From NCBI GenBank assembly GCA_963575745.1, contig CAUYUJ010000058.1, forward strand, positions 62,001 through 118,872: 56,872 bases of DNA, read 5' to 3'. This stretch comes from Prorocentrum cordatum. Taxonomy: Eukaryota. The notes beneath the pieces were generated by a model that searched no databases, was not told where the DNA came from, and saw only the letters and a program-made list of their open reading frames with translations. Made by a program: the position numbers and the translations under genes. Positions 1 to 45,800 of the stretch are shown in pieces. Numbering within the stretch: the first letter of the stretch is position 1; each line of letters starts with the position of its first letter.

Positions 1-708
1 CGGCACTCTGGGATGAGGAGGATGGGGAGGATGGGGCGGGGCAGGGGGTGGGAGATGGGTGAGGATGCGCATAATGGCAAGGACGACGAAGTGTAGTATG
101 TGGAGCTGGCGGAGGAGGAGGACGAATGAACTAGAGAGGATGGAGCACGGCGTGGGGAATAGTACATCGGAGTCCCCATTTCCCTTGTTCGGCATGGGAA
201 CGGTTCAACCTGTTATGACCTCCTGGCGTGGTCGTGCCACCCATGTTGCGCCAATGCGTGTGAGGCTTCAACGTGTAGGTCTATGGGTGCGACATCCATT
301 GGTCAGGTCTCATAAAGGGGCACACTATCAGAGGGATAGTGTCTCAGACCTTACCCCAGGGCGTGCCCTTTCGCGGCATGCCCATGTCTGTCAATATGTT
401 GGGCACCAGCGAGTTGAATGCTGTTCCAGTGGTGAGACAGCTTCCGTTTTGGACAACTCTCGCTTCAGTTTTCACAGGTATTACTTGGCATCGCTCGGAC
501 GTGTCATTTTTTCTCGGCGAGAACCATCGAGGAGCATCCTGGACCATCGAGCAAAAAAACACGCACGAAACCGAAACATGCACGGGAAATGGACGTCCGA
601 GCGACGCCCAGATTAGGGGCTTCGTTTTGCCATGCCGCGAGCCGCATGCTCGCTCATGCTTTGGATGCGTGTTCTACGCTTCTCTGCGAGGTCATCTGCG
701 ACAGCATC

Positions 709-5290: not shown

Positions 5291-6214
5291 GAATCATAGA
5301 TGGTGAGGAGGTCGCAGGCGAAACGCACGGCCCGCCCTAAAAATTGGCCTCGGGGTGCGACAGGGAGAAGTTGTTTGTAGCAGGAAAGTAGGAGTGATAG
5401 TAGGAATAAGAGTAGAAGTAGGAGTCAAGCTAGCCAGCTCGAGCGAGTCAAGCATGGCATGTCCATTCCCACCCGCCCTCCCACAACATAGAAAACAGTG
5501 CTGGCGCAACTGGGGACCGAAATCAGATCGGCAAAGTGGTTTGCCACAGTTGATGCAGCCGCGATGGCGGTTACCGATGGGGAGTTCTTGGCGCGTCTCA
5601 AAGACTGCGCTGGCATTCCAGCACGAGCCGAGGAGGCCCCAGGAAGCCTCAGGAGGCCCCAGGAGGCCTCAGGAGAAGCCCCCGCGACCCCCAGGAAGCC
5701 CCAGGAGGCCTCAGGAATACCAAGGAACCCCCAGGTAATTCCAGGAGGCTTCAGGAAACCATAGGAAGTGTAAGGAAGCACTGGGGAATTACAGGAAGCC
5801 CCAGGATGCCTCAGGAGGTTCCAGGAGGATCCACGAGGCCCTGGGGAAGCCCAGGATGTCCCAGGAGACCCTACGAGGCCCCAGGGGGCCTTAGGCGCTC
5901 GACGAATTGGCGAGCGAAAAATTATCCCAGCAAAGCAACCTAACAGCGATGTGTATAAGCATATCTAGAAGCATCCCCCTTAAGATTCAGGTGAGAATCC
6001 AGTTGTAGAATTCTGCTGTTCTCGCAGTCGCAGTCGCATTCGCAATGACAGTCGCAGCGGCAACGGCCTTAGGATCCAATATAATCCTAAGGATTCCTAA
6101 GGATTCCTGAGGATGTTTAACTATGCACTATGCCTACGGATTCCTAAGGATGCCGGCGGATTCCTGAGGATTCCTAAGGATTCCTATGGATTCCTACGGA
6201 TTCCTACGGATGCC

Positions 6215-6952
6215 TCCGCCTGCCTCAGTTTCAGCTTCAGCCTCAGCCTGCCTCGGCTTGCCTCAGCCTCAGCCTCAGCCTGCCTCGGCCTCAGCCTCAG
6301 CCTGCCTCAGCCTCAGCCTCAGCCTGTCTCGGCCTCAGCCTGCGTCAGCCTCAGCCTCAGCCTCAGCCTCAGCCTCAGCCTCAGCCTCAGCCTCAGCCTC
6401 CGCCTCAGCCTCAGCCTGCCTCGGCGTGCCTCCGCCTCAGCCTCAGCCTGCCTCGGCCTCAGCCTGCCTCGGCCTCAGCCTGCCTCAGCCTCCCCTCCCC
6501 CTCCCCTTCCCCCCCCCATTCAGCTTCACCTTGTCTCAGCTTCGGCCTGCCTCGGCCTCATCCTCAGCCTCAGCCTCAGTCTCAGCCTCAGCCTGTCTCG
6601 GCCTGAACCTGCCTCGGCCTCAGCCTCAGCCTGCCTCAGCCTCAGCCTGCCTCAGCCTCAGCCTCAGCCTCAGCCTCAGCCTGTCTCAGCATCAGCCTCA
6701 GCCCCAGCCTCAGCCTGCCTCAGCCTCAGCCTCAGCCGGCCTCAGCCTCAGCCTGCCTCAGCCTCAGCCTCAGCCTGCCTCAGCCTCAGCCTCAGCCTGC
6801 CTCGGGGTCAGCTTGCGTCAGCCTCAGCCCCAGCCTGCCTCAGCCTCAGCCTGCCTCAGCCTCAGCCTCAGCCTGCCTCGGCGTGCCTCAGCCTCAGCCT
6901 CAGCCTCAGCTTGCCTCGGCCTCAGCCTGCCTCGGCCTCAGATTGCCTCAGC
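6215..6952. repeat. (CCTCAG)/(CCTG) mixed microsatellite
   Basis: Direct reading. Confidence 0.95.
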
Positions 6953-6979
6953 TCGGGCACTCGAAATATGGCACAGGAC

Positions 6980-7310
6980 TAGTGTTCTGGAAGCACGAAG
7001 ATCACGAAGTGGCCCACAGTTGGCTCCGGGCAATCAAAATATGGTGCAGGAGTGATGTTCTGGGAACGCAAAGAACACGAAGTGGCCTACAGTTGGCTCC
7101 GGGCATCCAAAATGTGGCCCGGGAATGGAGTTCTGGGAAGTCGAAGAGCACGAAGTGGCCTACAGTTGGCTCCGGGCATCCAAAATGTGGCCCGGGAATG
7201 GAGTTCTGGGAAGTCGAAGAGCACGAAGTTGCCTACAGTTGGCTCCGGGCATTCAAAATGTGGCCCGGGAATGGAGTGCTGGGAGGTCGAAGAGCACGAA
7301 GTGTGTGACT
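6980..7310. repeat. 73-bp tandem repeat (~4.5 copies)
   Basis: CGAAGT anchors at 7005, 7078, 7151, 7224 and 7297. Confidence 0.9.
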
Positions 7311-7999: not shown

Positions 8000-14907
<6,908 letters not shown>

Positions 14908-16176
14908 TAGGGGTGCACATGGTCTTTGTGTCGCTACAAACTTCACCTTCGTGTACTCTTCTTTTGTATCAGGCCTGATAGAACTCCTACCAGGGGAATT
15001 ACGAAAACCGTAGTTTCAAACCTGGCCTTCGTGTCTTTCGCGCCAATGCCTACCTTCGTGCACTATTAGCTGTAGAGGCTGTAGATTGGATTCGCATGAG
15101 AAAGTGAACAAGAAACGGCAGTTTTACACCTGTCCTTCGTGTCGACGTCGGATTTGGAGCAACCGCCACTGCCAGCCGCTTCATTTCGGTACAATCCTCT
15201 CGAGGATCGTGGGCCTGGCCCTCCAACGCGCGATTCCGGCGCGCACTTCACTAGGATCGTGGCCCTGGTCCAATTGGGAGCGCTGCCGAAAGCCCACCGA
15301 CGTCCAATTCCGGCGCGCCGCTCACGAGGATCGTGTCCGGGCCCACTTGGGAGCGCTGCCGACGGCCCACCGGTGAGCAATATCGGCGCACCCCTCACAC
15401 GGATCGTAGACCTCGCCACATTTGGATCGCCTCCCGACGCTGAAGTTCGGCACACCTCTCACATGGATCGTGGCCCTGGCCCAATGTGGAGCGCTGCCGA
15501 CGGCCCACCGACGCCTAATGCCGGAACATCCCTCACGAGGATCGTGGCCCTCTGGTCCACTTGAGAATGGGTTTTCATTAGGACGTCGTTCTGGTTTTAT
15601 TCGGGAGCGCATTATGGTTTTATTCGTTTCTGGTTCGTGATGGTTAGGAGGAGGAAGAGGAGGATGAGGAGGAGGAGGAGGAGGAGGAGGAAATGGAAGA
15701 GGAGGAAGAGGAGGAGGAAATGGAAGAGGAGGAAGAGGAGGGGGAGGAGGAGGAGGAGGGGGAGGAGGAGGAGGAGGAAGGGGAAAACGATCAGGAAAAC
15801 TTCCACAATGGGTTTGCGAACCTCACCTTCGTGTATTATTGGCTCTATAGCCCCAGTATTGTTTTCTTACGAGCCAACGGCGAAATTGTGGTTTTCCGAA
15901 CCCCTTCTTCGTGTATCATTAGAATCACTGGGCTACCGAACCTCATCTTCGTGTGCTAATAACTGTATAGCCCCTGTATTGTTTTTCTACCAGCGAATGG
16001 CGAAATTCTAGGTTTCCGAATTCCTGCTCCGTGTACAATTAAACTCCGACAATTATAGGTTGTTTTGTTTGGTTTTAACAGATTGTGTAGAACCCGAACC
16101 CGAACCCTCACCCTTACCCTTACCCTCACCCTTACCCATGCATTCCTGGTAGACACGAAGGTGAAGCTTGACCCTA
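14908..16176. mobile_element. Non-autonomous TIR element (hAT-like TAGGG...CCCTA ends) inserted in the (TAG)n tract
   Basis: Subterminal inverted repeat CAA(A/G)CTTCACCTTCGTGT (14937-14954 vs 16153-16170). GTAGTTG lies on both flanks (14901-14907, 16177-16183). Internally there is a ~70-bp tandem repeat (15200-15560), (GAG)n and telomere-like hexamers (16091-16137). Confidence 0.6.
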
Positions 16177-19317: not shown

Positions 19318-19530
19318 TGCGAATACAGATCAATATCCGTCCCACCAAGCACTTGATGCAAACACAAGATGAGATACATATGATTCATGTATATGCGTAT
19401 TCAAAGCAAAACGTGAGTAGGTGCGTCCACATTCCGGCCCAGCTTATGAGCCACAACGGCCATGGGCGGAAAGGGAAATATAATTCATTATCACCCTAAA
19501 TATCACATCCTTGCCTATCTGATCTGCACA
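19318..19530 (-). repeat. 3' LTR of the copia element
   Basis: TGCGAATACAGATC...ATCTGATCTGCACA. It shares long blocks with 28173-28387, e.g. TCAAAGCAAAACGTGAGTAGGTGCGTCCAC and GCCCAGCTTATGAGCCACAACGGCCATGGGCGGAA. Confidence 0.9.
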
Positions 19531-19960: not shown

Positions 19961-20860
19961 TCAGCGTAAGCGAGCTGACGTGATGATGCTGTAGGCGATG
20001 TTAGTCTTGATACTCGGATCCAGACTGTTGCTCCTGCTCTCGTCTGCGTCAAGCTTCAGACACTGGCCCAAGCAATTGGCATACTGATTGTCCTTGCTAT
20101 ATATGTCTGCGAAGCTGCTGCCCTCGTATTTGCCACTCTTAATGCGCATCGGTCCCAGTGTAGCCAACCACAGCTTCAGGAGAGCACTGCCCCCCAGGTA
20201 GATATGTCAATCCTCCGTGACCTCGTCGGAGTACGTCTCCGCCTCAGGCTCAGCATTTAGGCGTAGTGTAGCTGTCATGAGTTTTGCCTGCTTGGGCACC
20301 TCCGCCCTGAAAAGGTTGTCGCTGTTTGAACTGTCCACCTCCATCGGTGCCATACCGAAATTATCGTCGTCGCTCTGCTTAGGCTGTATCACGTAGATAA
20401 ACACGATGACTCCCGCAATGATAGAAACCAACGCCACCACCGTAGGAGACATCGAAAGACAAACTCCAGACAGTGCAAGTGCGCGATCTGAATCAGAACT
20501 GCAACTTGGTCAGGTATCTGGATGGTTCGCTGCGCGCCACTCCTGTCTTCTGGGTAGTTGTCCATCGCATCGTCCATGTAGAATGTTTCGACACAGTGGG
20601 TCTCGCCATAATTCTCGCCCTTGTCATTGTAGAAGCACTCGTCCACATAGTTGTATGTCTCCACCGGCCAGGTAGATATCTCGTCGTTCCCATCGGTCGT
20701 CGTACAGCGCCTTCTTGACGTACTTAGCCATCTTCGCGTTCGGGTCGTCGACCTCCTTGTTGGCTGCCACCTTCTCTGGTCCAACTAGAATTCCGTCCGC
20801 GTATTGATGGTGCTCTGTCATCAGGCCCAAGAGTCCACAAGTTAGATATCACAACTTTCC
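19961..20860 (-). pseudogene. Extra coding-like region between RNase H and 3' LTR (hydrophobic helix plus GKYxG-type motif); function unknown
   Basis: Same-strand ORF fragments 20389..20784, 20207..20452 (VVALVSIIAGVIVFIYVI, transmembrane-like) and 19961..20167 (GKYEGSSFADIYSKDNQY). The sequence is complex, not microsatellite. Confidence 0.5.
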
Positions 20861-21360
20861 TCGCGCTGTCTCCTGGAAGCACTGTCGTCAGACAGTCCGC
20901 TAGCATATGCTCGCTCTTGACCCAGTTGATGCTGCCCTCCTTTGGTGACTGACGTAGTATACCCGCCTCCAGAGAACAGAGAACGACTCCTATCCGTCAT
21001 ATATACCTTCTCCGTCGTGATCGTGTCATACAGGCTCTTGCAGTCGGTGACCGAAATGCGTTTCAGTATGCAGGTGTCATGCGCGGTTTCGGCCGCATCC
21101 ATCTCTGGGTACAGGATCTCCGCCTAGGAGGACCCTGTCCAAATCAACGTTTCCACCGAATCTGCACATGAGTATGCCTCCGCCGATCGAGTAGATCGCA
21201 CCACTCGTTGAGTCTTTGAAGACCGCCACCTAATGCACTGTACCTTGTACTTGGTGCCGTTGGCCTCATCGATCTTCTCGTCACCTAGCATGATGAAATG
21301 TCCTCATTGATCTTCTCGTCACCTAGCACGATGAAGTGTCGAACACGTTGATCACCGTGG
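20860..21360 (-). pseudogene. RNase H domain of the copia element (frameshifted)
   Basis: Copia RNase H motifs are split across frames: VFDTS; WRSSKTQRVVRSTRSAEAY (~21170-21230); TDCKSLYD (21025-21048); MLADCLT (start 20906). A 38-bp local duplication interrupts it at ~21266-21340. Confidence 0.85.
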
Positions 21361-24300
21361 TCTTCCACAGGTTCAGACCAGCTGAGAACTTGATCAGTAA
21401 GTCGTCCCGCTTCTGGATTCTCCTGGTAGCCGCATTCCCATCCTGTAGATCCTTCACCGTCGGAGCTCCCAGCGTTGATGCCAATCGGGGTGTTTCGAAC
21501 GCTTCTTCGAAACAAATCATTCGCGCAGCCCGCTGCAGTTGTCCAACCACCATTCGTAGTCCTCGGTGCTCTGCAGGGGTAAGTGCACTGTCAGGTGCTT
21601 CGCTGCGCTCCCTGGAGACACGCACAATCTGCATAGACTTCACATAGGCCTCCATGGTGACGTTGATGCTGTCGTCCTTGTCTTGCTGATAGGCCCGGCC
21701 ACAGAACGTCGCCTTCCCCTGCCTCGCGTACTTGACCTCGCCAAAGTCAATCTCCTTGTGAAGGTCCTTTATGATCTTGGCGCCCTCAGGGTCGTCCTGC
21801 TGGATGCCAATGAGGAAGTCGTCAACGTGTAGACACATGATCCCGATGATCGTGTTCTCCTTGTTGCGCTTGATGAAGTTCGCGGCTTCGACGCTCTGGC
21901 CTTCCCATCCAAGCTTCACGAGCGTCTCGCGCAGCGCCACGTACCAAGCTCTTGCCGCATCGTTGGTCCCGTAGATGTTCTTATTAAGCTTCAGCAGGTC
22001 GCCTGCCCTACCACCTGGGATAGTACACTTCCCAAGGTTCGTCGGGATCCGAAAGTAGAGCTCGCGTGTGCTCGCCTTGCCTTGTAGAAAGGCTCCCTTC
22101 ACATCTGCAACGACTAGGTCCAAGTTGAGGCTCGATACGATGCTGCACAAAAGTAGCGTCATTTCTGCTGAGACTGTCGGAGAGTCTCGACGTAGCTTGT
22201 CGTCGAACTCCTCCTCGTAGCCCATTCCACATATTCTCGCCTTCGGCTCAAAGGTCGTAGGGTCTTTGTCCGCCCAGACCACCTTGGAGCTTAGGATCTT
22301 GTCTGGGTCTATTTTCTCAACCGCTGCTCTAGATATGTGGGTTGCTGCATCGCACTTGCACCAGGTATTCCACTCCTTCTCCACTGCTCTCTGCATCTTC
22401 TTCCACTTGAGCTTGTCGTCGCCCAGCGTCTTCAGGTTGATCTCCTGAGGCTTGTTAGCCCTTGTCGGCTGGGTGCACATCCCCTCGGCCACGAATGCTT
22501 CAACCAGGAGTGGTGTCTCCGCCAGCTGCTTGACTGGCCCCGTCTGCCCCTTCGCACGCTTGATGCTGATGGGTACGTTGTCCAGCAGGAACTCCTTAAG
22601 CGTCACGGGATGTTCCTGGCGCTTGCTGCCCTGATGCTGCTGCTCCGGCTGTCTTGTACTCGATATTGTTGTCCCTTGCTGTTCTTCCGTTGCCGGTGTC
22701 GGCACTGTTGCCGTCTCCTCTGCCTTCTTGCGTTCTTCCATGTATCTCTGGATACTGGCAGGTACTTGAAGTTGAGCTCGGTCGTCGTGAGCATCGTCCT
22801 TCTTGGTCTGCTTGAGCTTCAGGTCCTTCTTGACCGAATACTTCGTACCACCGCGCTTCACCTCCTTGGGCTGTTCTGGCTCCTCCATGATCTCGTCAGT
22901 GTTGCCGCCACTTGGAGACCCAGGCTGTGAGGCTGCAGGTTGTTGACCACCTCCCGGTCCATCTTCAGTTCCTTCTTCCTTCATCGATGTGATCACCTCG
23001 ATGACCGTGATCGGTTGCTGTGCCACCACATCGTCGATGATCTGAGGGTCTGCTATCCAGTCAACCCTCGAGATGTCTTGAACCAGGTCGCGTGTGTCCA
23101 GATTGAACAGCCGCCTCCTCTCGATCTGATACCCTGGTGCCGGTTCGGGTAGTAGAGGTGTATTCCTGATGTTGTCCAGCTGCCTTAGGTCGGTCTTGCC
23201 CTTGCTGTTGGATGCCACTGCTCCCAGGATGGTGTCCCAGGCTTGGTGTGCTCGACGTAGTCGCGCTCGTAAATCTTCCTCTGCTTGGTCTTGATCAGCT
23301 GGTACTGGTTCGTACTCATCATCCAGCCTCTGCCGCATCGGCATCACGTCATTCTCGTGCACCACATCCGATCGTCTCTTTCTGCTGTCCGACTGCTTCG
23401 GGTGACCCTCGCCACCTTGAGCTGGTGCTGCTCCTGGTGTGTCTGGTTGTCCTTGCACTGGCTGCTGTTGTGGAGCTTCTTGCTGTCCAGGTAGCTGCTG
23501 ATGATAGTCTTGCTGTCGTTCTGTAGGCTGTTGATCTTGATGTTGGTCTGGCTGTTGATCAGGTGGTTGATCTGGCTGCTCAGCATCTCGTGCTGGATTA
23601 TATTGTTCCCCTCGAAGGTCTATAAAGCCTCTCTGTCCAGCTCGAGATCGGGCTGGCCCACCGTCTGAGAACAGGTCGGTGAACTGCATGGTCGTCACCT
23701 CGTGCTCAGTCGCTTTCCGTAGTAAATTTGGTGAGCTCAGAATCGGGATCCGATTGTGAATCAGCCAGTAGCCATGCTCGTCCCTGCCCAGGCACTGGGC
23801 AGGTCCATGCCATCGAGCATGTAGGTTTCTCTTTGGATTGTCCGATCGCCAGAACATCAGTAGATCACCGTGCTGGAAGGGCCCTGGCTGGGGCCTTGTC
23901 CTTGCCAGCACTGTCCGCCTCAAAGCAGATGAGATAGCTGCCTTGAAGAAGGACTCCGAGCACATTTGCTGAAGGTGTAGTCGATTCCAGAACGATGTCT
24001 TTTCAGCTACCCTGGGAACTACTGCTAGGTCGTTGTCGGGATTCGCCAAACTCGCAGGTAGTCGATGTCCAGCTCCTAGTACCCACTGCTGTGGTGAAAA
24101 GCCCGCTGTGCTAACCAGCTGGTTGTACGCGTTGGCCATGCCTCGCACTGCAGCTGCAACTGAATCCTGACCACGAATTTCTCCAGCATTGAAGACACTC
24201 GTCGCCATCTCTTTTAGGTAACGTATCTTCCTCTCGACTTTGCCCATTTGCCAGTGAGCTTCTGGCGCAGCGTTGTTGATCACCAGGCAGAGGTCGTTGC

Positions 24301-26158
24301 ACAGTGTCTCGAACTCGCCCATGAAGGTAGAGTCCTGGTCCTGCTCAACCGCAGTAAGTGGTCCAGCCCAGGTCAGCCATCCAAGCTCGAAAGCCTTCTT
24401 AACCAACTCTGTTGTCGGTCTTGATCCAGGATACGTGTAAATAGCCACTGTAAAGTCCGATGCAATATCCACGATCACAAGCACCACGTGCATATTCTTG
24501 TCCATGTCGGGTATGATCATGTAATCCATGCCAATGGCCTCGTTAAAGTTTCTAACCTGGGGTTGAGCTGCTGTAGGTCTGGCTGTCGTCCGAGCCTGGT
24601 CCTCACACGCTGTGCATCTGAAGAGTCGTGCTGCTTGCACCGCTCGTCGACGAGCTCCACCGTGCTGTAGGTATCGTACTAATGACTCCTTGTAGGGTCC
24701 ATGTGAATGGCTTTCGTGTACCTTCTTGATAGCTGCTCGCATAAGTGGCGATACCGCCGTCCATTCCACCATCTCGATGTTGTCGCCGTGCTTGCTGAAG
24801 ATCGTCGCTGCACTCGCGTGCATGGGTGCCTCCGCCTCTGCGGGATTGGCCTCGATCTCGTCAAGCTCGATGTCATCGAATTTGTTGGCGTACCTGGCGT
24901 ACCCACCATGCTGCTTCTCGAGGTCCCGCTGATTCTCGATGCCGTCCATGATCGTCTTAGCCAGTTTCGCCGTCCAGTTGCCAAGACTTGACGCTGTTCC
25001 CTTCGGCCTGTTGATTACGCTCGTGTGTTCGTTCGTGTTGTCACACCTGATGCTGTTGAGCTTTGCGCTTGGCATGATGGCCGTAGTCAGGAACCGCGTT
25101 GGCTTCTTGACGGAATCGCCCATGAAGTCCACCAGGTTGCCGCCCTCGGCGCATTGGTGCGTCATCGCGGCCACAAACTCTGAGCCTAGCCACGGCATGA
25201 ACTTCCACGCCTTGGATGTCAGCGGGTTCTCCAGTAGCATGTGTGCTTCTCGACGCTTGCAGTTGAGGCAGATCTGCTTGCCGAACCGCAGGTGCTTCAT
25301 GCCAGTTTCCAGCTTCATCATCCTTGTCTTCTGCGGAAGCATGTGCGATATGTTCGTGAACGGATCGCATGGAAAACCCACGATAGTCATGTAGGGGTCG
25401 TTTTCGTCCAGTTGCTTCAGCACTTTCCGCTGTGACTTAATGTCCAGTAGGTCGTCCCCTATCAGGATGTCCCTTGGTCTCGTAGTAGGGCGTCGCCGCT
25501 GCTGAGCTTCCGATGTGGCTGCCATGCCACTAGCATAGAGCTCGCATATGATAGACCGTTTCTCCTCTGGGTCCGCCTTTAGCGTCTCCACGACTTGCTG
25601 ACACTGGTCCAGCTTGTCCTGCATCTCTTTCTCCCACGTCTTGATATGCTTCCTCTGCTTTCGTCGTAGGATGCCCTTGTCTATCTCTTGCACCTCCGCG
25701 GTCCAGATGTCGATCTCATCCGTCATAACTGATGGTACTGTTTTGGTCGTTTCTTTCTTCGGCCAGTCCTTGATTGAGATCGTCAGGTGCCCCTTCTCGG
25801 TCTTGTTGAGCGGCACCCCGTACTTGTTGTTCGCCTTGAAGTCCGCTTTCCGCTCCTTCACGTACAGCATTGTGTCTAGCTCCTCCAGCTGGTGGATGCT
25901 GAGCAGTATTGGCGTCTTCGATTTCGGCAGCCTCTGGAATCGTATATTCACGTCGGCTCCTGCAAGTCCAGCTGTCACCTCCTGCTCGCCTTCTGCCATG
26001 ACGGGGGCGCTATCATTCACGCCTCGGAAGCGCATGGATGAGCCCCTCATCCTCGTAGTGACCCTGCTGTCCTCCACGTAGCCGTCCAACGCTAGTGAAC
26101 CTCCACATCCTTGTAGGCACGCCGTGTCCAGTACAGCATGTCCATCTGGAGTAAGTCC
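21323..26158 (-). CDS. pol: pol polyprotein frame: aspartic protease, C5-DNMT-like domain, integrase, reverse transcriptase and start of RNase H
   Basis: The 1588-aa ORF stays open upstream to 26158 and contains protease VLDTAC (LDTAC 26117-26131). Integrase: HHCC (HESHSH...CTAC, 24605-24718) and D,D(35)E (IGMD 24524, EQD 24338, VER 24233). RT motifs: KARICGMG, DVKGAFLQG, LNKNIYGTNDAARAW and HVDD (21818-21829). RNase H starts at VFDTS. Confidence 0.93.
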   Translation of the reverse strand, partial: GLTPDGHAVLDTACLQGCGGSLALDGYVEDSRVTTRMRGSSMRFRGVNDSAPVMAEGEQEVTAGLAGADVNIRFQRLPKSKTPILLSIHQLEELDTMLYVKERKADFKANNKYGVPLNKTEKGHLTISIKDWPKKETTKTVPSVMTDEIDIWTAEVQEIDKGILRRKQRKHIKTWEKEMQDKLDQCQQVVETLKADPEEKRSIICELYASGMAATSEAQQRRRPTTRPRDILIGDDLLDIKSQRKVLKQLDENDPYMTIVGFPCDPFTNISHMLPQKTRMMKLETGMKHLRFGKQICLNCKRREAHMLLENPLTSKAWKFMPWLGSEFVAAMTHQCAEGGNLVDFMGDSVKKPTRFLTTAIMPSAKLNSIRCDNTNEHTSVINRPKGTASSLGNWTAKLAKTIMDGIENQRDLEKQHGGYARYANKFDDIELDEIEANPAEAEAPMHASAATIFSKHGDNIEMVEWTAVSPLMRAAIKKVHESHSHGPYKESLVRYLQHGGARRRAVQAARLFRCTACEDQARTTARPTAAQPQVRNFNEAIGMDYMIIPDMDKNMHVVLVIVDIASDFTVAIYTYPGSRPTTELVKKAFELGWLTWAGPLTAVEQDQDSTFMGEFETLCNDLCLVINNAAPEAHWQMGKVERKIRYLKEMATSVFNAGEIRGQDSVAAAVRGMANAYNQLVSTAGFSPQQWVLGAGHRLPASLANPDNDLAVVPRVAEKTSFWNRLHLQQMCSESFFKAAISSALRRTVLARTRPQPGPFQHGDLLMFWRSDNPKRNLHARWHGPAQCLGRDEHGYWLIHNRIPILSSPNLLRKATEHEVTTMQFTDLFSDGGPARSRAGQRGFIDLRGEQYNPARDAEQPDQPPDQQPDQHQDQQPTERQQDYHQQLPGQQEAPQQQPVQGQPDTPGAAPAQGGEGHPKQSDSRKRRSDVVHENDVMPMRQRLDDEYEPVPADQDQAEEDLRARLRRAHQAWDTILGAVASNSKGKTDLRQLDNIRNTPLLPEPAPGYQIERRRLFNLDTRDLVQDISRVDWIADPQIIDDVVAQQPITVIEVITSMKEEGTEDGPGGGQQPAASQPGSPSGGNTDEIMEEPEQPKEVKRGGTKYSVKKDLKLKQTKKDDAHDDRAQLQVPASIQRYMEERKKAEETATVPTPATEEQQGTTISSTRQPEQQHQGSKRQEHPVTLKEFLLDNVPISIKRAKGQTGPVKQLAETPLLVEAFVAEGMCTQPTRANKPQEINLKTLGDDKLKWKKMQRAVEKEWNTWCKCDAATHISRAAVEKIDPDKILSSKVVWADKDPTTFEPKARICGMGYEEEFDDKLRRDSPTVSAEMTLLLCSIVSSLNLDLVVADVKGAFLQGKASTRELYFRIPTNLGKCTIPGGRAGDLLKLNKNIYGTNDAARAWYVALRETLVKLGWEGQSVEAANFIKRNKENTIIGIMCLHVDDFLIGIQQDDPEGAKIIKDLHKEIDFGEVKYARQGKATFCGRAYQQDKDDSINVTMEAYVKSMQIVRVSRERSEAPDSALTPAEHRGLRMVVGQLQRAARMICFEEAFETPRLASTLGAPTVKDLQDGNAATRRIQKRDDLLIKFSAGLNLWKTTVINVFDTSSC
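24938..25555 (-). CDS. C5 cytosine DNA methyltransferase-like domain within pol
   Basis: Motifs occur in canonical order: I-like ELYASG (25526-25543), IV GFPC with catalytic Cys (25367-25378), VI ENP (25223-25231), VIII-like QC...KKPTRF (25091-25156) and X-like GNWTAKLAKTIMDGI (24938-24982). Confidence 0.78.
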
Positions 26159-26501: not shown

Positions 26502-27863
26502 TCAATATTTGATCTTCTGTAGGTCTGCCGCTGTGGTATCCTCTTCATGGTAGTCGGTGCTCGATCTGCTGGGCCGTGTCTGTCCTGATCCAGATCCTGG
26601 CGTTTGGTCATCACTCCCCTCAGGTATGCTGTGGATCCGATTCGCTTCTCCAGGCCACTCTCGTGTCCCTTGATCGTCTCCAAGTGGTGATACCGTCCAG
26701 GTATTCACGATCTGCTCGTCGGTGTCGATCCTCACCTTCGTCAGACTCGTGGTCTCCTCCATCGTGGTCTCCATGTTCGCCAGCTGGTCATTCACGATCT
26801 GGATGGCAGTCATGTCCATTGAGCTGTCCGCCATCAGTAGCTTCACCGCAGCTGCCATCGCAAACCCAGCCCGTCGTAGAAAACCTCCAGGTCGCCCGTG
26901 AAAGCCTCGGCCACCACCTCGTCCTCCACGCAGTAAGCTGCTCGATGATCCGCCGCCCGATGGCCTTGTCTTCTCAAACTCCGGGTCGCCTTTCCAGTGA
27001 CCCGTCTTGTGGCATGCGTTGCACTTCGTGCGAGCCTTCATCTTCTTGAGCTTCTCTTCGGCTTCCTTGCCGTCCATCTTGATGAATCCCTCATCGCTCA
27101 GAAGCCCGTCCTCATCGCATACACCACACTCGTATCCAAGTAGGGCTCCTCCTCGTCATTGTCGTAGTCCACCGGGTATGTTCCATAACGTCCGTGACCA
27201 CGTTCGTCTCTGCACGTCGTGTCCAGCTGGATGAGCATCGCCGCCGTCACGTCGTCCCAGATGTAGTCGTTGTTGCACTGCCCGAGAATAGCTTTGTGCT
27301 CGGTCATGCTGAGATTGGCCAACTTTAGCAGGAAGTGTGTCCGCAGGTCTTCGCTCACTGGCGTGTTTGTTGGAAGAGAGACTCGAGCCGCGCATACTCC
27401 GTTTCCCGCCTCGATCTGTAATCTTGGAGAAGTACTCCTCCTCCTCCTCCTCCTCCTCCTCGTAATCCTCCTCCTCCCCCTCCTCGTTTCGTTTGCGAAA
27501 GCCTTTGGAGAAGTACTCCTCGAAAGCTTGCTGCTTCTGCAGTGGGGCGATCCGCTCGCAGGCTCGTCGTACCGTTGCGACCACCAGCTTCACTGCAGCG
27601 AGTGGGTCATCACCTGCTTTGTCCAACACTGCTCGCGTCGCAATCTCAGCCCTCCTCCTCGAGAGGTTCCACGCTCGCCCATTTAAGGAATTCACGGGCT
27701 TGATCGCGTGGAGCTTCTGCAGCTTCTCTTCGCTCGCATAGTAGCCGAGCATCGCGCGCTCCTCGAACTCCTCGCCGTAGGCTGGGTCGCCGTTGTAGTG
27801 TACGACTCCCTCCTTGTCCACGAAGAGGGGTCCGTCGTTGGGTTGTTGCTGCCTGGTCGCCAT
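26502..27863 (-). pseudogene. gag: gag region of the copia element (frameshifted; degenerate zinc knuckle)
   Basis: Probable start MATRQQQPNDGPLFVDKEGVVHYNGDP (ATG at 27863). It continues through ORF fragments 27156..28136, 27098..27358 and 26502..27077. The knuckle CNACHKTGHWKGDPEF (26976-27023; last Cys apparently TGT>TTT) is followed by an RGG-rich tract. Confidence 0.8.
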
Positions 27864-28153: not shown

Positions 28154-28171
28154 CTCCAGTCCAGGCTACCA
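28154..28171 (-). promoter_or_regulatory. tRNA primer-binding site (PBS)
   Basis: The minus strand reads TGGTAGCCTGGACTGGAG, 1 nt after the 5' LTR. TGG is complementary to tRNA 3'-CCA, and TGGTAGC is the start of initiator-Met-type PBSs. Confidence 0.8.
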
Positions 28172-28172
28172 G

Positions 28173-28387
28173 TGTAAATACAGATCACAATATCCTTCCC
28201 ACCAAGCACTTGATGCAAGCACAAGATAAGATAACTAAGATCTTTGTTAATTCCGTACTCAAAGCAAAACGTGAGTAGGTGCGTCCACCCTCCCGCCCAG
28301 CTTATGAGCCACAACGGCCATGGGCGGAAGGGAAAGATACTTCATTATCACCCTAAATATCACATCTTTGCCTATCTGATTTTCACA
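28173..28387 (-). repeat. 5' LTR of the copia element
   Basis: TGTAAATACAGATC...ATCTGATTTTCACA, with imperfect terminal inverted repeats. It aligns by eye to 19318-19530 at roughly 85-88% identity. Confidence 0.9.
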
Positions 28388-28632
28388 AAGGGAGTCCCTG
28401 GACGCAAGAAGCGACCAACGTGAGATGACAGTAGTTAGTCTATCAAGCCTAGCTAGAACTTGAGCGCGCGCGCGAAACGCGCGATGGTTCTGGTATGTTT
28501 TATATGTGTATACATACATACATACATACATACATACATACATACATACATACATGCATGTATGCATGCATGCATACATACATACAAACATGCATACCTA
28601 CATACATACATACATCCATCCATCCATACATA

Positions 28633-29850
28633 CGAGAGAGCGTGATCCACCGCCGCTTTACTGTGGAAAATTGCCAGCTTTTTCCTCCGGAACCCGGGGG
28701 TCGCCCCCCCCCCCCCCCCCCCCTCCGAAAATCCCCCCCCCCTGCTGGAACCCCTCCCCCCCCCCCCCCCCTCTCCCCCGGCAAAACCCCCCCCTCCCCT
28801 AACCCCCCCTCCCCCCCCCCCCCCCCCTCCCGCTCGAAAACCGGGGGGGTCACTACCGGTTCGAACCCCTCCCCCCCCCCCCCCCCCTCTCTGGATCCGG
28901 AAAACCGGGGGGGGTCACTACCGGATCGAACCCCCCCCCCCCCCCCCCCCCCCCCCCTACTCACCGCCAGCAAACGACTCCCGGTCCCCACCACCGTCCG
29001 CATCACATCCCCCACTGGTGTTCCCAGCACCACTGTCCTCACCACCGCTGTCCCCACTGGTTCCACCACCGCCCCTACTGTCCCCACCAGTGGCCCCACC
29101 ACTGTCGCACTGTCCCCGCTGTCCCCAGAACTGTTCCCACCACGGTTCCACTCTCCCCACTGTCTCCACGGCCCCAACCACTGCCCGACTATCCCCACTG
29201 TCCCCACTGTCCCACTGACTCCTCCGCTGTCCCACTGAGCTGTCCCACTGTTCCCACCACTGTCCCCACTGTCCCCACCACTGTCCCCACTGTACCTCTG
29301 TCCCATTGTCCCACCGCCGTCCTCGCCACCGCCTTCACCACTGTCCCCACCACCATTGTACCCTCCACTGTCCCACTGTTTCCACCTCATTCCCATTGTC
29401 CCCACACCACTGTCCCCACCACCACCGTCACCACCACTGTCCACTGTCCCCCCCTGTTCCCACCATTGTCCCCACCACTGTCCCCACCACTACCGTCCCC
29501 ACCACTGTCCCACTATCCCACTGTCCCCACCACTGTCCCGCTATCCCCTCACCACTGTCCCCACCAACACCATCCCCACCACTGTCCGCACCCCCACTCG
29601 GTTTTCGAGGAGGGAGAGAGGGGGGTTCGAACCGATCGTGAACCCCCCCGGTTTCCGAGGGGGGGGGGGGGGGGAGGGGTTCGAACCGGTAGTGACCCCC
29701 CCCCCTTTTCATGATGAGCTGGGGGGGGGGGGGAGGGGTTTCGAACCGGTAGTGACCCCCCCGGTTTTCCGGAGGGGGGGGGGGGAGGTTTTCGAACCGG
29801 TAGTGACCCCCCTCGGTTTTCTGCCAGCAGCGGTAGAACACGCTCTTTCA
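28633..29850. mobile_element. Foldback/MITE element with TA flanks, inserted in a (CATA)n microsatellite
   Basis: The terminal IR GAGAGAGCGTGATCCACCGCCGCT matches the reverse complement of 29826-29849 at 20/24. There are inner inverted GGGGTCACTACCGGTTCGAAC units and a central (CCCCACTGT)-like satellite. (CATA)n continues on both sides (28508-28632, 29851-30161). Confidence 0.75.
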
Positions 29851-30120
29851 TACATACATACATGCATACATACACACATGCATACATACATACATACATA
29901 CATACATACATACATACATACATACATACATGCATGCATGCATGCATGCATGCATGCATGCATGCATACATACATACACACATACATACATACATACATA
30001 CGTACGTACGTACATACATACATACATACATACATACATACATACATACATACATACATACATACATACATACATACATACACAGACATACATACATACA
30101 TACATACATACATACATACA

Positions 30121-30156
<36 letters not shown>

Positions 30157-30834
30157 CATACGTAGCACCCCGCAATTGCGGATAAGAGTGAGGGGGCGGG
30201 CGCGGGCGACGCGGGCGTCGTCGAGCCGGCGGACCTCGTGGCCCCCACCTTCCTTGTCGATGGCGCTCTCCTCCACCTCCTCCTCCTCCTCCTCCTCTTC
30301 CTCCTCCTTCTCCTCCTCCTCTTCCTCGTCCTCATCGTCATCGTCATCCTCCTCCTCCACCTCGTCCTCCTCCTCCTCCTCTTCCTCGTCCTCCGTCTCC
30401 CCCCCTCGTCTTTTCATCATGGTCCTCCCATTGTCGTCCTCCCCCTCATCGGCCTCCATCATCGTCCTCCCATTGTCGTCCATCATCATCATCATCCCCC
30501 CCTCCTCCCCCTCCTCGTCCTCCTTCTCCCCCTCCTCCCCCTCCTCCCCCTCGTCCTCCTGCTCCTCCTCCTTTTCTTTCTCCACGTTCTCCTTACATCC
30601 TCTCTTCTTCCACGTTCTCCTCGTCCCCTGTTTACTCATCCTGCCTCCCCCTCCTTTCCCAAGATAACTGCAACGCAATCCTTTGTTCCACTTTATGCTC
30701 CCCGCCTTCTCTGATCAAGGCAACTCGCCAGGGCAAAGTTGCTGGACGGGCTGGCGTGGATGTGCGGGGCGTGAAGAGGTCCTTGCGGGCTCAGACGGCA
30801 TGCAAGAATCCGCCGCCGCGCTTGTGCGGCATTG

Positions 30835-34206: not shown

Positions 34207-36175
34207 ACCTAACAGCGAAGACTGATAGGTTTCTAGTGGTGTCAAAAGAGAGCAGCAGATGACTCCACAGGGGGGTCTGGGCAGCCGTTGGGGAGGTGTT
34301 GGGGGGCCGTTGGGGGGCAGTTGGGGATTGCCGGGGAACGTCGTTTTTCGCAAACAGTCACACACTTCGTGCTCTTCGACCTCCCAGAACTCCATTCTTC
34401 GACCTCCCAGAACTCCATTCCCGGGCCACATTCTGAATGCCCGGAGCCAACTGTAGGCCACTTCGTGGTCTTCGAGTTCCCAGAACTCCATTCCCGGCGT
34501 ACATTTTGGATGCCCGGAGCCAACTGTAGGCCACTTCGTGGTCTTCGAGTTCCCAGAACTCCATTCCCGGGCCACATTTTGGATGCCCGGAGCCAACTGT
34601 AGGCCACTTCGTGGTCTTCGAGTTCCCAGAACTCCATTCCCGGGCCACATTTTGGATGCCCGGAGCCAACTGTAGGCCACTTCGTGCTCTTGGACTTCCC
34701 AGAACTCCATTCCTGGGTATGATTTTGAATGCCCGGAGCAAACTGTAGGCCACTTCGTGTTCTTCGAGTTCCCAGAATTCCATTCCCTGGCCACATTTTG
34801 AATGCTGAGGCAGGCTGATGCTGAGGCTGAGGCAGGCTGAGGCTGAGGTCGAGGCTGACGGCAGACTGAGGCTGAGGCTGAGGCAGGCTGAGGCTGAGGC
34901 TGAGGCAGGCTGAGGCTGAGGCTGAGGCAGGCTGATGCTGAGGCAGGCTGAGGCTGAGGCTGAGGCTGATGCAGGCTGAGGCTGAGGCAGGCTGAGGCTG
35001 AGGCCGAGGCTGAAGGCAGATTGAGGCTGAGGCTGAAGCAGGCTGAGGCTGAGGCTGAGGCAGGCTGAGGCTGAGGCTGAGGCAGGCTGATGCTGAGGCA
35101 GGCTGAGGCTGAGGCTGATGCTGATGCAGGCTGAGGCTGAGGCAGGCTGAGGCTGAGGCCGAGGCTGAAGGCAGATTGAGGCTGAGGCTGAAGCAGGCTG
35201 AGGCGGAGGCTGAGGCAGGCCCAGGCAGGCTGAGGCAGGCTGATGCTGAGGCAGGCTGAGGCTGAGGCTGATTGCAGCTTGAGCAGAGCAGGCTTGAGGA
35301 CTGAGGCCGAACTAAGGCAGATTGAGCTGAGGCGAGGCAGAGCGGCTGAGCTGCGGCTGAGGCAAGGCTGATGCTTAGGAGGCTGAGGCGAGGCTAGCTG
35401 ATGAGGCCGAGGCTGAGCAGCTGAGGCCTAGCCGAGGCCCTGAAGCAGACTGAGGCTGAGCTAAAGCAGGCTGAGGCTGAGGCTGAGGCACGGCTGAGGC
35501 TGAGGCTGAGGCAAGGCTGATGCTGCTGAGGCTGACCAGGCTGAGGCTGAGGCTGAGGCTGATGCAGGCTGAGGCTGAGGCAGGCCGCGGCCGAGGCCGA
35601 GGCTGAAGGCAGACTGAGGCTGAGGCTGAAGCAGGCTGAGGCTGAGGCTGAGGCAGGCTGAGGCTGAGGCTGAGGCTGAGGCAGGCTGAGGCTGAGGCTG
35701 AGGCTGATGCAGGCTGAGGCTGAAGCAGGCCGAGGCTGAGGCCGAGGCTGAAGGCAGACTGAGGCTGAGGCTGAAGCAGGCTGAGGCTGAGGCTGAGGCT
35801 GAGGCTGAGGCTGGCTGATGCTGAGGCAGGCTGAGGCTGAGGCTGATGCAGGCTCAGGCTGAGGCAGGCTGAGGCTGAGGCCGAGGCTGAAGGCAGACTG
35901 AGGCTGAGGCTGAAGCAGGCTGAGGCTGAGGCAGAGGCAGGCTGAGGCTGAGGCTGAGGCAGGCTGAGGCTGAGGCAGGCTGAGGCTGAGGCTGAGGCTC
36001 ATACAGGCTGAGGCTGAGGCAGGCGGAGGCTGAGGCCGAGGCTGAAGGCAGACTGAGGCTGAGGCTGAAGCAGGCTGAGGCTGAGGCTGAGGCAGGCTGA
36101 GGCTGAGGCTGAGGCAGGCTAATGCTGAGGCAGGCTGAGGCTGAGGCTGAGCTGATGCAGGCTGAGGCTGAGGCA
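34207..36175 (+). mobile_element. Second, inverted copy of the 5922-7438 element; far end lost in the gap
   Basis: TTTTT|ACCTAACAGCGAAGACTGATAGGTTTCTAGTGG, then 73-bp units (~34365-34803) and (GGCTGA/GGCA)n at 34805-36175. This is the reverse-complement layout of 6215-7438. Confidence 0.8.
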
Positions 36176-42884: not shown

Positions 42885-45800
42885 GGGTTTGAGGGCAAGA
42901 CGGCCCAAGAGGCGCCCAAGACGGCCCAAGAGGGCCCCAAGACGGCCCCAAGAGGGGGACCACGAACCGAAAAGTCTAGCCTATCGCCCCAAGACGCTCC
43001 CAGGAGGCCCCCAGAGCCCCCCAAGAAGCCCCAAGAGGCCCCCAAGATGCGTCCCAAGAGGCCACCAGGAGGCCAAAATCATTGATGCCCCATGGGAAAA
43101 GGTACCTTTTTAGCATACACGGCTTTTCGGTTTCACGGCGTTGAAGACGGTCCAAGAGGCCCCCAAGACCGCCCCAAGACTGCCCAAGAGGCCCCCAAAA
43201 GGGTCCAAGAGGGCCCCAAGACGGCCCAAGAGGCGCCCAAGACCGCCCAAGAGGGCCCCAAGGTGGCCCCAAGAGGGGGACCACGAACCGCAAAGTTTAG
43301 CTCTTCGCCCCAAAAAGCTCCCAGGAGGCCCCCAGAGCCCCCCAAGAAGTCCCAATTGGCTCCCAAGAGGTTCCCAAAAGGGTTCCAAAAAGGCGCCAAT
43401 AGGACTCCCAAGAAGGCCCAGAGACGCCAAATCAGAGCGATCGGTAACGCAAAAAGCTCTTCACACCAAGGCTCCCAAGAGCGAACGGTGACGTAAACCA
43501 GCTGATAAGACCAAGGCTCCCAGGCTCCCAGCAGAGAGCGGTGACGTAACAAGTTCCTGACACCAAGGCCCAGCCAAGGCTCAGGAACGGGCGGCACCGC
43601 AACAATCTCTGAACACCAAGGCTCCCACGAGCGAGGGGTGACGTAACAAGCTCTCACAACGCCAAGTAATTTCGGTTTCTGTTTCTGAAGCGCTCTTTCT
43701 CTTTCCGTGCCGGGCCAGGTAACGGAAAGAGCAATGTACGAGTGATGACGTTGTGTTTGGGCGAAGCCCTTCAGGGAGGGGTCCAGGGGAGGGGCGAGGC
43801 GGAGACGCAGGGTTGGTAATGGCCGTTTTCGGGTTTCCCTTGGGTTATTGCATGTTTTTCGGGTTCCCTCCCAAGACGGCCCAAGAGCGCTCCAAGATAG
43901 CCCAAGACGGCCCAAGAGGCCCCCAAGAGGCGCCCAAGGGGCGTCCAAGAGGACCCCAAGAGGCCAAACTCATTGATTTTCCTAAGGAAAACGTGCATTT
44001 TTAGCATATACGGCTTTTCGGCTTTCGCAGCGTTGACGATGACGACAGCCCAAGAGGCCCCCAAGACCGCCCCAAGACGGCCCAAGAGGCTCCCAAAAGG
44101 CCCCCAACACGGCCCAACCAAGAGGGCCCCAAGACGGCCCCAAGAGGGGGACCACGAACCGCAAAGTTTAGCTCTTCGCCCCAAAAAGCTCCCAGGAGGC
44201 CCCCAGAGCCCCCCAAGAAGTCCCAATTGGCTCCCAAGAGGTTCCCAAGAGGCCTCCAAGGGCGCGAAAAGGGCTCCAATCGGATCCCCAAGAAGGCCCA
44301 GAGACGCCAAACAAAGAGCGATCGGTCACGCATTACCATGTCAGGACCACTCAATGCTGACTGTCATTCTGAAGGACCCGCAGTGCGCAAGAAGAGCACC
44401 CAACAGTGATTTCAGAAGAGCGCAGCAAGAAGAGGAACGGCAACTATACAAAATGGAAGCACAGGGGCGTTGAAAGAAACGCGTATGACGTACCTCCGAA
44501 TGATCCTAGTGGAACGTACCTCCGCTGGGCCACGAAAGTGGCGACAGTTGCGCAGATCGCAAGCCCCCCAGAGGGCGCCGAGGTCCCGAGGTGATCTGCG
44601 TGGGACCCACCTCCGCTGGGCCTCCCAGGAGCCAACGAAAGCGGCAATAGTTGCGAAAATCGCAAGCCCCCAGGGCACAGCGAGGTCCCGAGGTGATTCG
44701 CGTGGGACCCACCTGCGTTGGGCCTCCCAGGAGCCCACGAAAGTTGCGACAGTTGCGCAGATCGCAAGCCCCCAAGGCGGCGGCGAGGTTCCGAGGTGAT
44801 CCGCGTGGGACGTACCCCGCTGGGCCTCACAGGAGCCCACGAAAGTGGCGACGGTTGCGCAGATCGCAGCCCCCAGGGCACCGCGAGGTCTCGAGGTGAT
44901 CCGCGTTGGACGTACCTCCGCTGGGCCTCCCAGGAGCCCACGAAAGCAGCAATAGTTGCGAAAATCGCAAGCCCCCCAGGGGGCGGCGAGGTCCCGAGGT
45001 GATCCGCGTGGGACGTACCTCCGCTGTGCCTCCCAGGAGCCCACAAAAGTGGCGACAGTTGCGCAGATCGCAGCCCCCAGGGCACAGCGAGGTCTCGAGG
45101 TGATCCGCGTGGGATCCACCTCCGCTGAGCCTCCCAGGAGCCCACGAAGGTGGCGACAGTTGGGCAGGTCGCAGCCCCCAGGGCGCCGCGAGGTCCCGAG
45201 GTGGTCCGCGTTTGACGTACCCCCGCTGGGCCTCCCAGGAGCCCACGAAAGTGGCGACAGTTGCGCAGATCGCAGCCCCCAGGGCACCGCGAGGTCCCGA
45301 GGTGATCCGCGTTGGATGTACCTCCGCTGGGCCTCCCAGGAGCCCACGAAAGTGGCGACAGTTGCGCAGATCGCAGCCCCCCAAGGGCACCGCGAGGTCC
45401 CGAGGTGATCCGCGTTGGATGTACATCCGCTGGGCCTCCCAGGAGCCAACGAAAGTGGCGACAGTTGCGCAGATCGCAGTCCCCCAGGGCACCGCGAGGT
45501 CCCGAGGTGATCCGCGTGGGACGCACCTCCGCTGGGCCTCCCAGGAGCCCACGAAAGTGGCGACAGTTGCGCAGATCGCAGCCCCCCAGGGCGCCGCGAG
45601 GTCTCGAGGTGATCCGCGTGGGACCCACCTCCGCTGGGCCTCCCAGGAGCCCACGAAAGTGGCGACAGTTGCGCAGATCGCAGCCGCCCAGGGCACCGCG
45701 AGGTCCCGAGGTGATCCGCGTTTGACGTACCTCCGCTGGGCCTCCGAGGAGCCCACGAAAGTGGCGACAGTTGCGCAGATCGCAGCCCCCCAAGGGCACC

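Follow-up and report, generated by a model that had tools for sequence, protein, structure and literature searches.

Can a Ty1/copia retrotransposon carry a cytosine methyltransferase-like domain inside Pol, just ahead of its integrase, and what would the domain do there? The question is raised by a 56,872-nucleotide stretch of the Prorocentrum cordatum genome (GenBank assembly GCA_963575745.1, contig CAUYUJ010000058.1, positions 62,001 to 118,872 of the forward strand; hereafter the window), which holds a copia element on its minus strand. The original prediction, made by inspection of the letters, was that about 200 aa of the open pol frame between protease and integrase form a C5 DNA methyltransferase-like domain, processed from Pol and packaged, so that new cDNA could be methylated before integration. 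The domain (domain X) was followed up by structure modelling, profile comparison and a family-wide search. It shares the C5-methyltransferase fold, and very probably common ancestry, with these enzymes. The overall explanation that we favour, and which we regard as evenly balanced against the alternatives taken together, is a C5-methyltransferase-fold domain of viral-like origin that methylates new cDNA in intact elements.

The domain and its motifs are located as follows (window coordinates):

24905..25558, minus strand: domain X, about 220 aa, C5-methyltransferase fold (residues 28-245 of the 260-aa AlphaFold2 model)
25526..25543, minus strand: ELYASG, the motif I equivalent with a degenerate Gly-rich loop, aligned to DLFAGIGG of Dcm-type enzymes
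25367..25378, minus strand: GFPC, the motif IV equivalent with the putative nucleophilic Cys, aligned to PC of Dcm and of phage P087 gp15
25223..25237, minus strand: LLENP, the motif VI equivalent, aligned to ENV of Dcm and to ENP of the phage family
25097..25159, minus strand: HQC...KKPT beta-hairpin at the motif VIII position, running from HQC (25151-25159) to KKPT (25097-25108), the latter aligned to KKPT of phage gp15
25025..25045, minus strand: CDNTNEH, the local form of a C-x3-H-x-H segment
24938..24982, minus strand: GNWTAKLAKTIMDGI, the C-terminal helix at the motif X position (model helix 224-244)

The interval first proposed for the domain (24938..25555, minus strand) translates to 206 aa, and all the quoted motif strings are present in it. 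Conservation was counted over 62 aligned sequences, namely the window domain and 61 hits covering it. The residues expected to carry out catalysis are kept throughout the family: C91 in 61/62 sequences and its neighbour P90 in 59/62 (motif IV), E137 in 60/62, N138 in 49/62 and P139 in 61/62 (motif VI, where Pro replaces the Val of ENV). The motif I region retains E33 (62/62) and an aromatic residue at position 35 (Y/F, 60/62), and D/N63 (60/62) and W145 (56/62) are also conserved. The hairpin, with the family consensus DQC.FG...KKPT, keeps C163 (61/62), K179 (61/62) and T181 (60/62); it is followed by C199 (59/62), H203 (60/62) and H205 (60/62) of the C-x3-H-x-H segment, which together with C163 may form a metal site. 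The C-terminal helix has the consensus [YW][PT]xxL[AC] (Y/W222 62/62, L226 47/62).

Three of the motif assignments proposed at the outset stood only in part. QC...KKPTRF occupies the place of motif VIII topologically, and is at most a tentative equivalent in sequence: the family has DQC.FG...KKPT instead of QxRxR, and the confidence of the hhalign alignment is low past motif VI. At motif X, the following helix is indeed conserved, but the 'GN' is not a family feature (G220 in 35/62, N221 rare). CDNTNEH, assigned to the variable target-recognition region, is present and belongs to a near-invariant segment, but only about 40 residues separate K179 from the C-terminal helix, too few to make a real target-recognition domain.

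The fold was assessed with AlphaFold2, Foldseek and VIA-align. The model of the window domain, built from a 58-sequence alignment, had a predicted local distance difference test score (pLDDT) of 91.4 and a predicted template modelling score (pTM) of 0.84. Foldseek returned 57 PDB matches at E<=1e-3 (best E 3.2e-5, probability 1.00), of which the best 50 were C5 methyltransferases only (DNMT3A/3B/3C, DNMT2 and EhMeth). When 48,161 chains were compared with VIA-align, M.HhaI ranked first (Z 11.9, root mean square deviation 3.7 over 181 residues, model 26..245 on HhaI 10..327), and DNMT3A (Z 11.9), DNMT3B (11.8), MET1 (11.6) and DNMT2 (10.9) scored similarly. A second member of the family, P0058, which is 24% identical to the window domain, was modelled with a pLDDT of 87.1; C5 methyltransferases were the only proteins among its listed Foldseek PDB matches, with DNMT2 at rank 1. 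Against the viral structures of BFVD, the best matches of the window domain (E 2.9e-8 to 9e-6) were viral 'DNA methylases' of 210-225 aa, including those of Lactococcus phage P087 and Tetraselmis virus 1, and the top match (E 2.9e-8) had TM-scores of 0.56/0.67. Domain X therefore has the class I methyltransferase fold in the AlphaFold2 models, and in both structure comparisons.

Profile-profile comparison (hhalign, local mode) gave results of the same kind. The copia domain family was aligned with E. coli Dcm at 64.5% (E 6.3e-5), with PC on PC and ENP on ENV. The Dcm relatives retrieved were orthologues 74-100% identical, and eight phage C5 methylases were added for profile breadth; with the resulting 14-sequence alignment (Dcm, five Dcm orthologues and the eight phage proteins) the score was 72.5% (E 3.3e-5), motifs I, IV and VI were in register, and ELY was placed on DLF of motif I. 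A far stronger match was obtained with eight short phage proteins (96.9%, E 1.4e-10, 148 columns), which have PPCxxWS, ENPxxSxxW and KKPT in common with the copia family; a single member, P087 gp15, gave 79.5%. The nearest named cluster of the ESM Atlas was likewise a viral C5 methylase family (score 0.86), which is taken as a lead only. Domain X is thus closest to short phage/viral C5 methylases, not to the host DNMT1/DNMT3, which makes a virus-like or prokaryote-like donor the probable origin. Taken together, the AlphaFold2 models, Foldseek, VIA-align and the hhalign comparison with phage methylases bear out the placement of a C5-methyltransferase-like domain between protease and integrase.

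The short phage/viral methylases (phrog_2882, phrog_757) measure about 210-270 aa, have no large target-recognition domain and present the motifs in the same order (PPCxxWS, ENPxxSxxW, KKPT), in all of which they resemble domain X. P087 gp15 (212 aa) matches phrog_2882 at 1.3e-60 and phrog_757 at 2.5e-12, reaches PF00145 only at E 0.022, and has relatives in 103 phage records; further examples are the 'putative C5 methylase (MAV1virus-like)' of Streptococcus prophages and a 218-aa putative cytosine DNA methyltransferase of Tetraselmis virus 1. As a family they match phrog_116 and, weakly and below cutoffs, PF00145 and TIGR00675. They differ from domain X in that they stand alone, whereas domain X is embedded in a retrotransposon Pol; in that they keep the FDxGxG loop, which is gone from most copia domains; and in the features that the copia family adds, namely the invariant Glu before the aromatic residue, the Cys of DQC and C-x3-H-x-H. 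The short phage proteins examined, at locus L010 (11474-12112) and loci L011-L018, carry ENP and KKPT motifs.

Canonical C5 methyltransferases (M.HhaI, Dcm, DNMT1, DNMT3A/B and DNMT2) resemble domain X in fold, in the order of motifs I, IV and VI and in the catalytic Cys and Glu. They are distant from it in sequence (9-14% identity to the C5 enzymes of the PDB) and about 100 residues longer (327 aa in M.HhaI against about 220), and they have the conserved FxGxG, QxRxR and GN that domain X lacks; E33 and C163 of domain X find no counterpart in them.

When 1.84 billion representatives were searched exhaustively with phmmer, the domain had 375 relatives at E<=1e-3, of which 49 reached E<=1e-10; a single-protein search of metagenome contigs found no relative. 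A search of sequencing runs gave small shares of the sequence words only (0.17 and 0.04), and no RNA run was listed as a carrier. The named members come from Cladocopium goreaui, Durusdinium trenchii, Symbiodinium natans and S. necroappetens, all Symbiodiniaceae. Among 28 long members, Pfam (E<=1e-3) identified rve in 18 and RVT_2 in 13, and PF00145 in none; where the spacing was mapped (P0003, P0007, P0036, P0049 and P0089), 80-150 aa separate the end of domain X from rve. Constraint was gauged with protein-level proxies on non-independent pairs. In 25 polyproteins with all three domains, the mean pairwise identity was 0.331 for domain X, 0.339 for integrase and 0.347 for reverse transcriptase (RT). 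In eight clusters of near-identical copies, the density of amino-acid mismatches was 107/11024 in domain X and 96/9592 in integrase, against 1499/70083 in the regions beyond X, integrase and RT; the RT value (240/5645) was inflated by two clusters. By these measures domain X is conserved as strongly as integrase and RT. It is a standing part of Pol in one Ty1/copia clade, in the order gag, protease, domain X, integrase, RT and RNase H.

The element that carries the window domain is built as follows:

28173..28387, minus strand: 5' long terminal repeat (LTR; TG...CA), from blastn of the element ends
28164..28171, minus strand: TGGTAGCC, primer-binding-site-like, read from the sequence 1 nt past the 5' LTR
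26973..27863, minus strand: gag remnants with an ATG at 27863, in at least two reading frames, with a degenerate CCHC knuckle, from tblastn of P0155
21323..26158, minus strand: open pol frame with protease motif, domain X, integrase, a long low-complexity linker and RT
26117..26134, minus strand: protease-like VLDTAC (D-T-A replacing D-T/S-G), identified by motif, upstream of domain X
24059..24721, minus strand: integrase with H..H / C..C finger and D,D,E core, from motifs and alignment to relatives matching PF00665
24701-24718 and 24605-24616, minus strand: HESHSH and CTAC of the integrase finger, downstream of domain X
21638..22294, minus strand: RT of the RVT_2 type (PF07727, E 3.6e-15, residues 1289-1507)
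20808..21309, minus strand: RNase H remnants in two further frames, from tblastn of P0155 (frames -2 and -3) and the open reading frame list
19318..19530, minus strand: 3' LTR (TG...CA), from blastn of the element ends

Two LTRs, and an integrase that precedes an RVT_2-type RT (the copia order), place the element in Ty1/copia, in agreement with the original prediction. TGGTAGCC may correspond to the initiator tRNA-Met primer site of Ty1/copia elements. Pfam found no protease profile match on the window Pol and no rve match at E<=10; relative P0003 carries LDSAC at the protease motif.

The closest full-length relative, P0155 (2646 aa), was used as the reference for frame comparison. By tblastn, gag corresponds to it in three pieces (frames -3, -1 and -3), and the final approximately 450 aa of P0155 have no counterpart at the window element. 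The LTRs, of about 215 bp, are identical at 190/216 aligned positions by blastn (88%; 26/216 differ), and the element occurs once in the window. The window copy is a decayed insertion, and its activity is unlikely. Its pol frame is open all the same, over 4836 nt from stop to stop (21323..26158, 1611 aa), despite the 88% LTR identity and the broken gag and RNase H: a substitution level of 6% should have produced about 12 stop codons in pol, and the probability of none is about 7e-6. The open frame could be due to a recombinant element, to assembly errors of the indel type or to constraint acting on pol. The Gln/Pro/Asp-rich linker between integrase and RT (22888-23615, minus strand) is 242 aa long, against 78 aa in P0155, and is thus about 160 aa longer. 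Just before domain X, a thymidylate synthase profile (PF00303) matched residues 115-205 of P0001 (25546-25816, minus strand; E 2.5e-4) with 20.7 bits, under the 24.3 cutoff; the match occurs in one of 23 family members and was therefore rejected as chance.

The original prediction proposed a PF00145 search, and was to be given up if no C5-methyltransferase fold or profile hit appeared. Judged by the PF00145 and phmmer searches alone it would have fallen, since both miss the domain; the fold models match C5 methyltransferases. In PHROGs, where seven copia-family domains were scanned, the window domain had no match at E<=0.1; P0095 matched phrog_757 'DNA methyltransferase' at 2.3e-5 and P0058 matched phrog_2882 at E 0.05. 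A phmmer search of the domain against PDB sequences gave nothing better than E 0.31, NCBIfam gave nothing useful on domain X, and Rfam gave no family at the gathering threshold. Since the domain has no PF00145 match and its family counts at least 375 representatives, profile-based DNMT censuses miss a family of this kind.

Several observations weigh against a functional methyltransferase or restrict what the structural comparisons can say. With respect to homology, PF00145 does not match the window Pol or its domain at E<=10, and it matches only 2 of 23 family members, both below the 22-bit curated cutoff (P0095 with E 4.6e-4 and 20.1 bits). The family profile finds nothing significant among PDB sequences (DNMT2 at E 2, through the PC motif only), and the phage family is itself linked to canonical enzymes by a weak sequence match (hhalign 59.6%, with register kept at motifs I, IV and VI). 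In Foldseek, PDB enzymes have TM-scores of only 0.39-0.49, and MAT2B (Z 11.4) and short-chain dehydrogenases (Z 10-11) score so near the DNMTs in VIA-align that its Z alone cannot separate DNMTs from other Rossmann folds. With respect to activity, the FxGxG loop is degenerate, a divergence of motif I that had been pointed out from the start: Gly occupies its first position (+2) in 16/62 sequences and its second (+4) in 6/62, and the window copy reads YASGM. The Arg pair of motif VIII and the Asn of motif X are not conserved in the 62-sequence alignment, and a target-recognition domain of normal size is absent, its place being taken by a Cys/His segment of about 35 aa. The window copy is the only one with Asn at position 203 (His in 60/62), and its gag and RNase H are frameshifted. 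Finally, no experimental characterisation of the short phage/viral methylases was found in the accessible parts of the literature searched: a paper on 936-type phages yielded a passage on SMRT detection of modified bases but nothing on cytosine methylation or P087, and no functional study was listed for MAV1/marMP.

Despite these points, a conserved catalytic function of some kind is probable for domain X. The Cys, Pro and Glu are kept at 95-98%, and the domain evolves at a rate equal to that of integrase, which argues for catalysis via attack on pyrimidine C6. About 13 members retain E[ILV]F[GA]G and, at the end of the next strand, an Asp; across the family the loop positions still hold T, S, G or A, all of them small. 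The neighbourhood of the integrase would place the domain on cDNA; together with the conserved catalytic residues, this position therefore leads us to favour C5 methylation of new cDNA, and DNA C5 methylation as the specific activity is put forward tentatively, as somewhat less than an even prospect. In such a scheme, domain X would be made within Pol of intact elements, adjoining or fused to integrase; its Cys would add to C6 of a cytosine flipped out of the new cDNA, C5 methylation would follow, and the new copy would already be marked on entering a heavily CG-methylated genome. Fold, homology, architecture and conservation are observed; release of the domain from Pol, its packaging and the methylation of cDNA are presumed steps, and the use of S-adenosylmethionine (SAM), the substrate, the timing and the metal site are likewise predicted.

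Of the alternatives, the one that survives best, although we consider it unlikely, is that domain X is a pseudo-enzyme or reader, which has kept the fold and the base-flipping pocket, has lost methyl transfer, and serves as a DNA-binding or targeting module for integrase, for example by holding the pre-integration complex at DNA that is CG-rich or methylated, in the manner of a chromovirus chromodomain. The loss of the Gly-rich SAM loop in most members, of the motif VIII Arg and of the motif X Asn would all suit such a module, as would the small Cys/His segment in the place of the DNA-recognition domain and the consistent position 80-150 aa ahead of the integrase core in mapped members. Retention of the Cys (61/62), Pro (59/62) and Glu (60/62) is, however, what catalysis predicts, and a pure binder needs such residues less; the SAM-loop positions, moreover, still hold small residues, and the aromatic residue and D/N63 are each kept in 60/62.

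An improbable alternative is an RNA m5C methyltransferase of the DNMT2 kind, acting on the genomic RNA of the element or on its tRNA primer. DNMT2-type enzymes (EhMeth and those of human, S. pombe and Spodoptera) do occur among the Foldseek and VIA-align matches, and rank first for the P0058 model; domain X has no DNA target-recognition domain, and RNA methylation is raised for a LINE-borne DNMT in the available text of the 2018 paper on retrotransposon DNMTs (PMC5890265). Yet DNMT2 is not favoured over the DNA enzymes for the window domain (VIA Z 10.9 against 11.9), and the closest relatives are phage/viral proteins annotated as DNA methylases.

Very improbable, in our view, is another C5 chemistry, in which the same Cys would attack pyrimidine C6 and a non-SAM cofactor or a different adduct would be used. 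The catalytic Cys and Glu are kept although the SAM loop has been remodelled, and E33 and C163 are near-invariant and without canonical counterpart. Such chemistry would also suit dinoflagellate DNA, which is rich in 5-hydroxymethyluracil (5hmU) and 5-methylcytosine (5mC): 22-45% 5hmU replacing T, and 7.6-13% 5mC, are given in the accessible part of PMC11572971. According to the same text, however, 5hmU is made by TET/JBP-type dioxygenases, and the FDxGxG loop of the phage relatives points to SAM in the ancestor. A superficial resemblance, in which a generic Rossmann-like fold has acquired chance motif matches, is extremely improbable: the near-DNMT scores of short-chain dehydrogenases, the missing PF00145 match on the window protein and the mere 64-72% of hhalign to canonical enzymes speak for it, but two models only 24% identical list C5 methyltransferases alone among their Foldseek PDB matches, the top BFVD matches are cytosine methylases, three motifs align in order and register, and the 96.9% hhalign match is to phage proteins with a C5 methylase annotation, a family that itself matches phrog_116 and, weakly, PF00145/TIGR00675.

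Retrotransposon-borne DNMTs as such are known. The accessible text of De Mendoza et al. (2018, PMC5890265) describes SymbioLINE-Dnmt, SymbioDIRS-Dnmt3 and KnitGypsy-Dnmt3, and agrees with the original prediction that the published carriers are DIRS, Gypsy and LINE elements and not copia; it states that Symbiodinium copia 'lacks any DNMT domain'. A 2026 preprint reports, in its available part, DNMTs in chromovirus-like EpiLTRs, and names DIRS and LINE only as dinoflagellate cases (bioRxiv 10.64898/2026.05.21.726589). As far as these two texts go, the DIRS and Gypsy carriers resemble the window element in having the DNMT domain inside Pol, and the named relatives of domain X share Symbiodiniaceae hosts with the DIRS and LINE carriers. 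The published domains, as described there, are recognisable DNMTs (DNMT3-like, Symbiodinium-specific or sister to DNMT4) on DIRS, LINE, Gypsy or chromovirus backbones; domain X, in contrast, sits on a copia backbone, in the interval between protease and integrase, is invisible to PF00145 and has short viral proteins as its nearest relatives.

The Symbiodinium Ty1/copia elements SmTCL are listed with PR, INT, RT and RH, and an extra domain is unmentioned in the part of the article available (Chen et al. 2017, PMC5776459); compared by description, these elements and the window element have LTRs, an integrase before RT and RNase H in common. One statement speaks against novelty: PMC12344493, in its accessible text, places DNMT3 members in 'LTR Copia and DIRS families' and cites the 2018 paper for it. 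The corresponding account in the available text of the 2018 paper (PMC5890265) describes Gypsy, not copia, contrary to that wording. No description of a copia element with the order protease, DNMT-like domain, integrase was found in the literature searched, as far as its texts were accessible. What is new is thus the copia backbone, the position between protease and integrase, the probable viral-like origin and the profile-invisible subfamily; cytosine-methyltransferase-type domains borne by retrotransposons were already known.

The surroundings of the element in the window are rich in repeats. Directly outside the 5' LTR, 28453-30700 is occupied by a (CATA)n array and C/T-rich low-complexity DNA, with long spurious Pro/Gly-rich open reading frames on both strands. 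Two inverted composite satellite blocks (6211-7303 and 34396-36175), about 80% identical over about 1.1 kb and composed of a GCCTCA/GCTGAG hexamer array and 73-bp repeats, flank some 27 kb that hold the copia element. Elsewhere lie a 6.9-kb (AGT)n-like microsatellite (8000-14910; about 2298 copies, 77% matches, GC 0.39-0.40, GC skew about 0.63) and a tandem array with a 102-bp unit (44530-46891; 23 copies, higher-order period 406 bp).

As the window copy has decayed, the domain means little for the window taken by itself. The known retrotransposon-borne DNMTs, on DIRS, LINE and Gypsy/chromovirus backbones, have served as an argument that transposons are able to set epigenetic marks of their own. 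The fullest form of the proposal, which we offer as a speculative one and rather doubt as a whole, is that a copia clade has an active pyrimidine-C5-modifying enzyme of phage/viral origin beside its integrase, which would mark cDNA before or during integration; it would constitute a third, independent and hitherto overlooked retrotransposon route into the unusual CG methylation found across the genomes of these algae, and a new, profile-invisible branch of the C5-methyltransferase fold in which a Cys/His metal site replaces the target-recognition domain. Among the retrotransposon superfamilies of coral-symbiont dinoflagellates, copia is reported, in the accessible literature, as the most abundant. 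If domain X is active, a clade of this most abundant transposon class would carry a cytosine-modifying enzyme, the enzyme would have a distinct, virus-like origin, and from so small an architecture one could learn which parts of a DNMT are dispensable.

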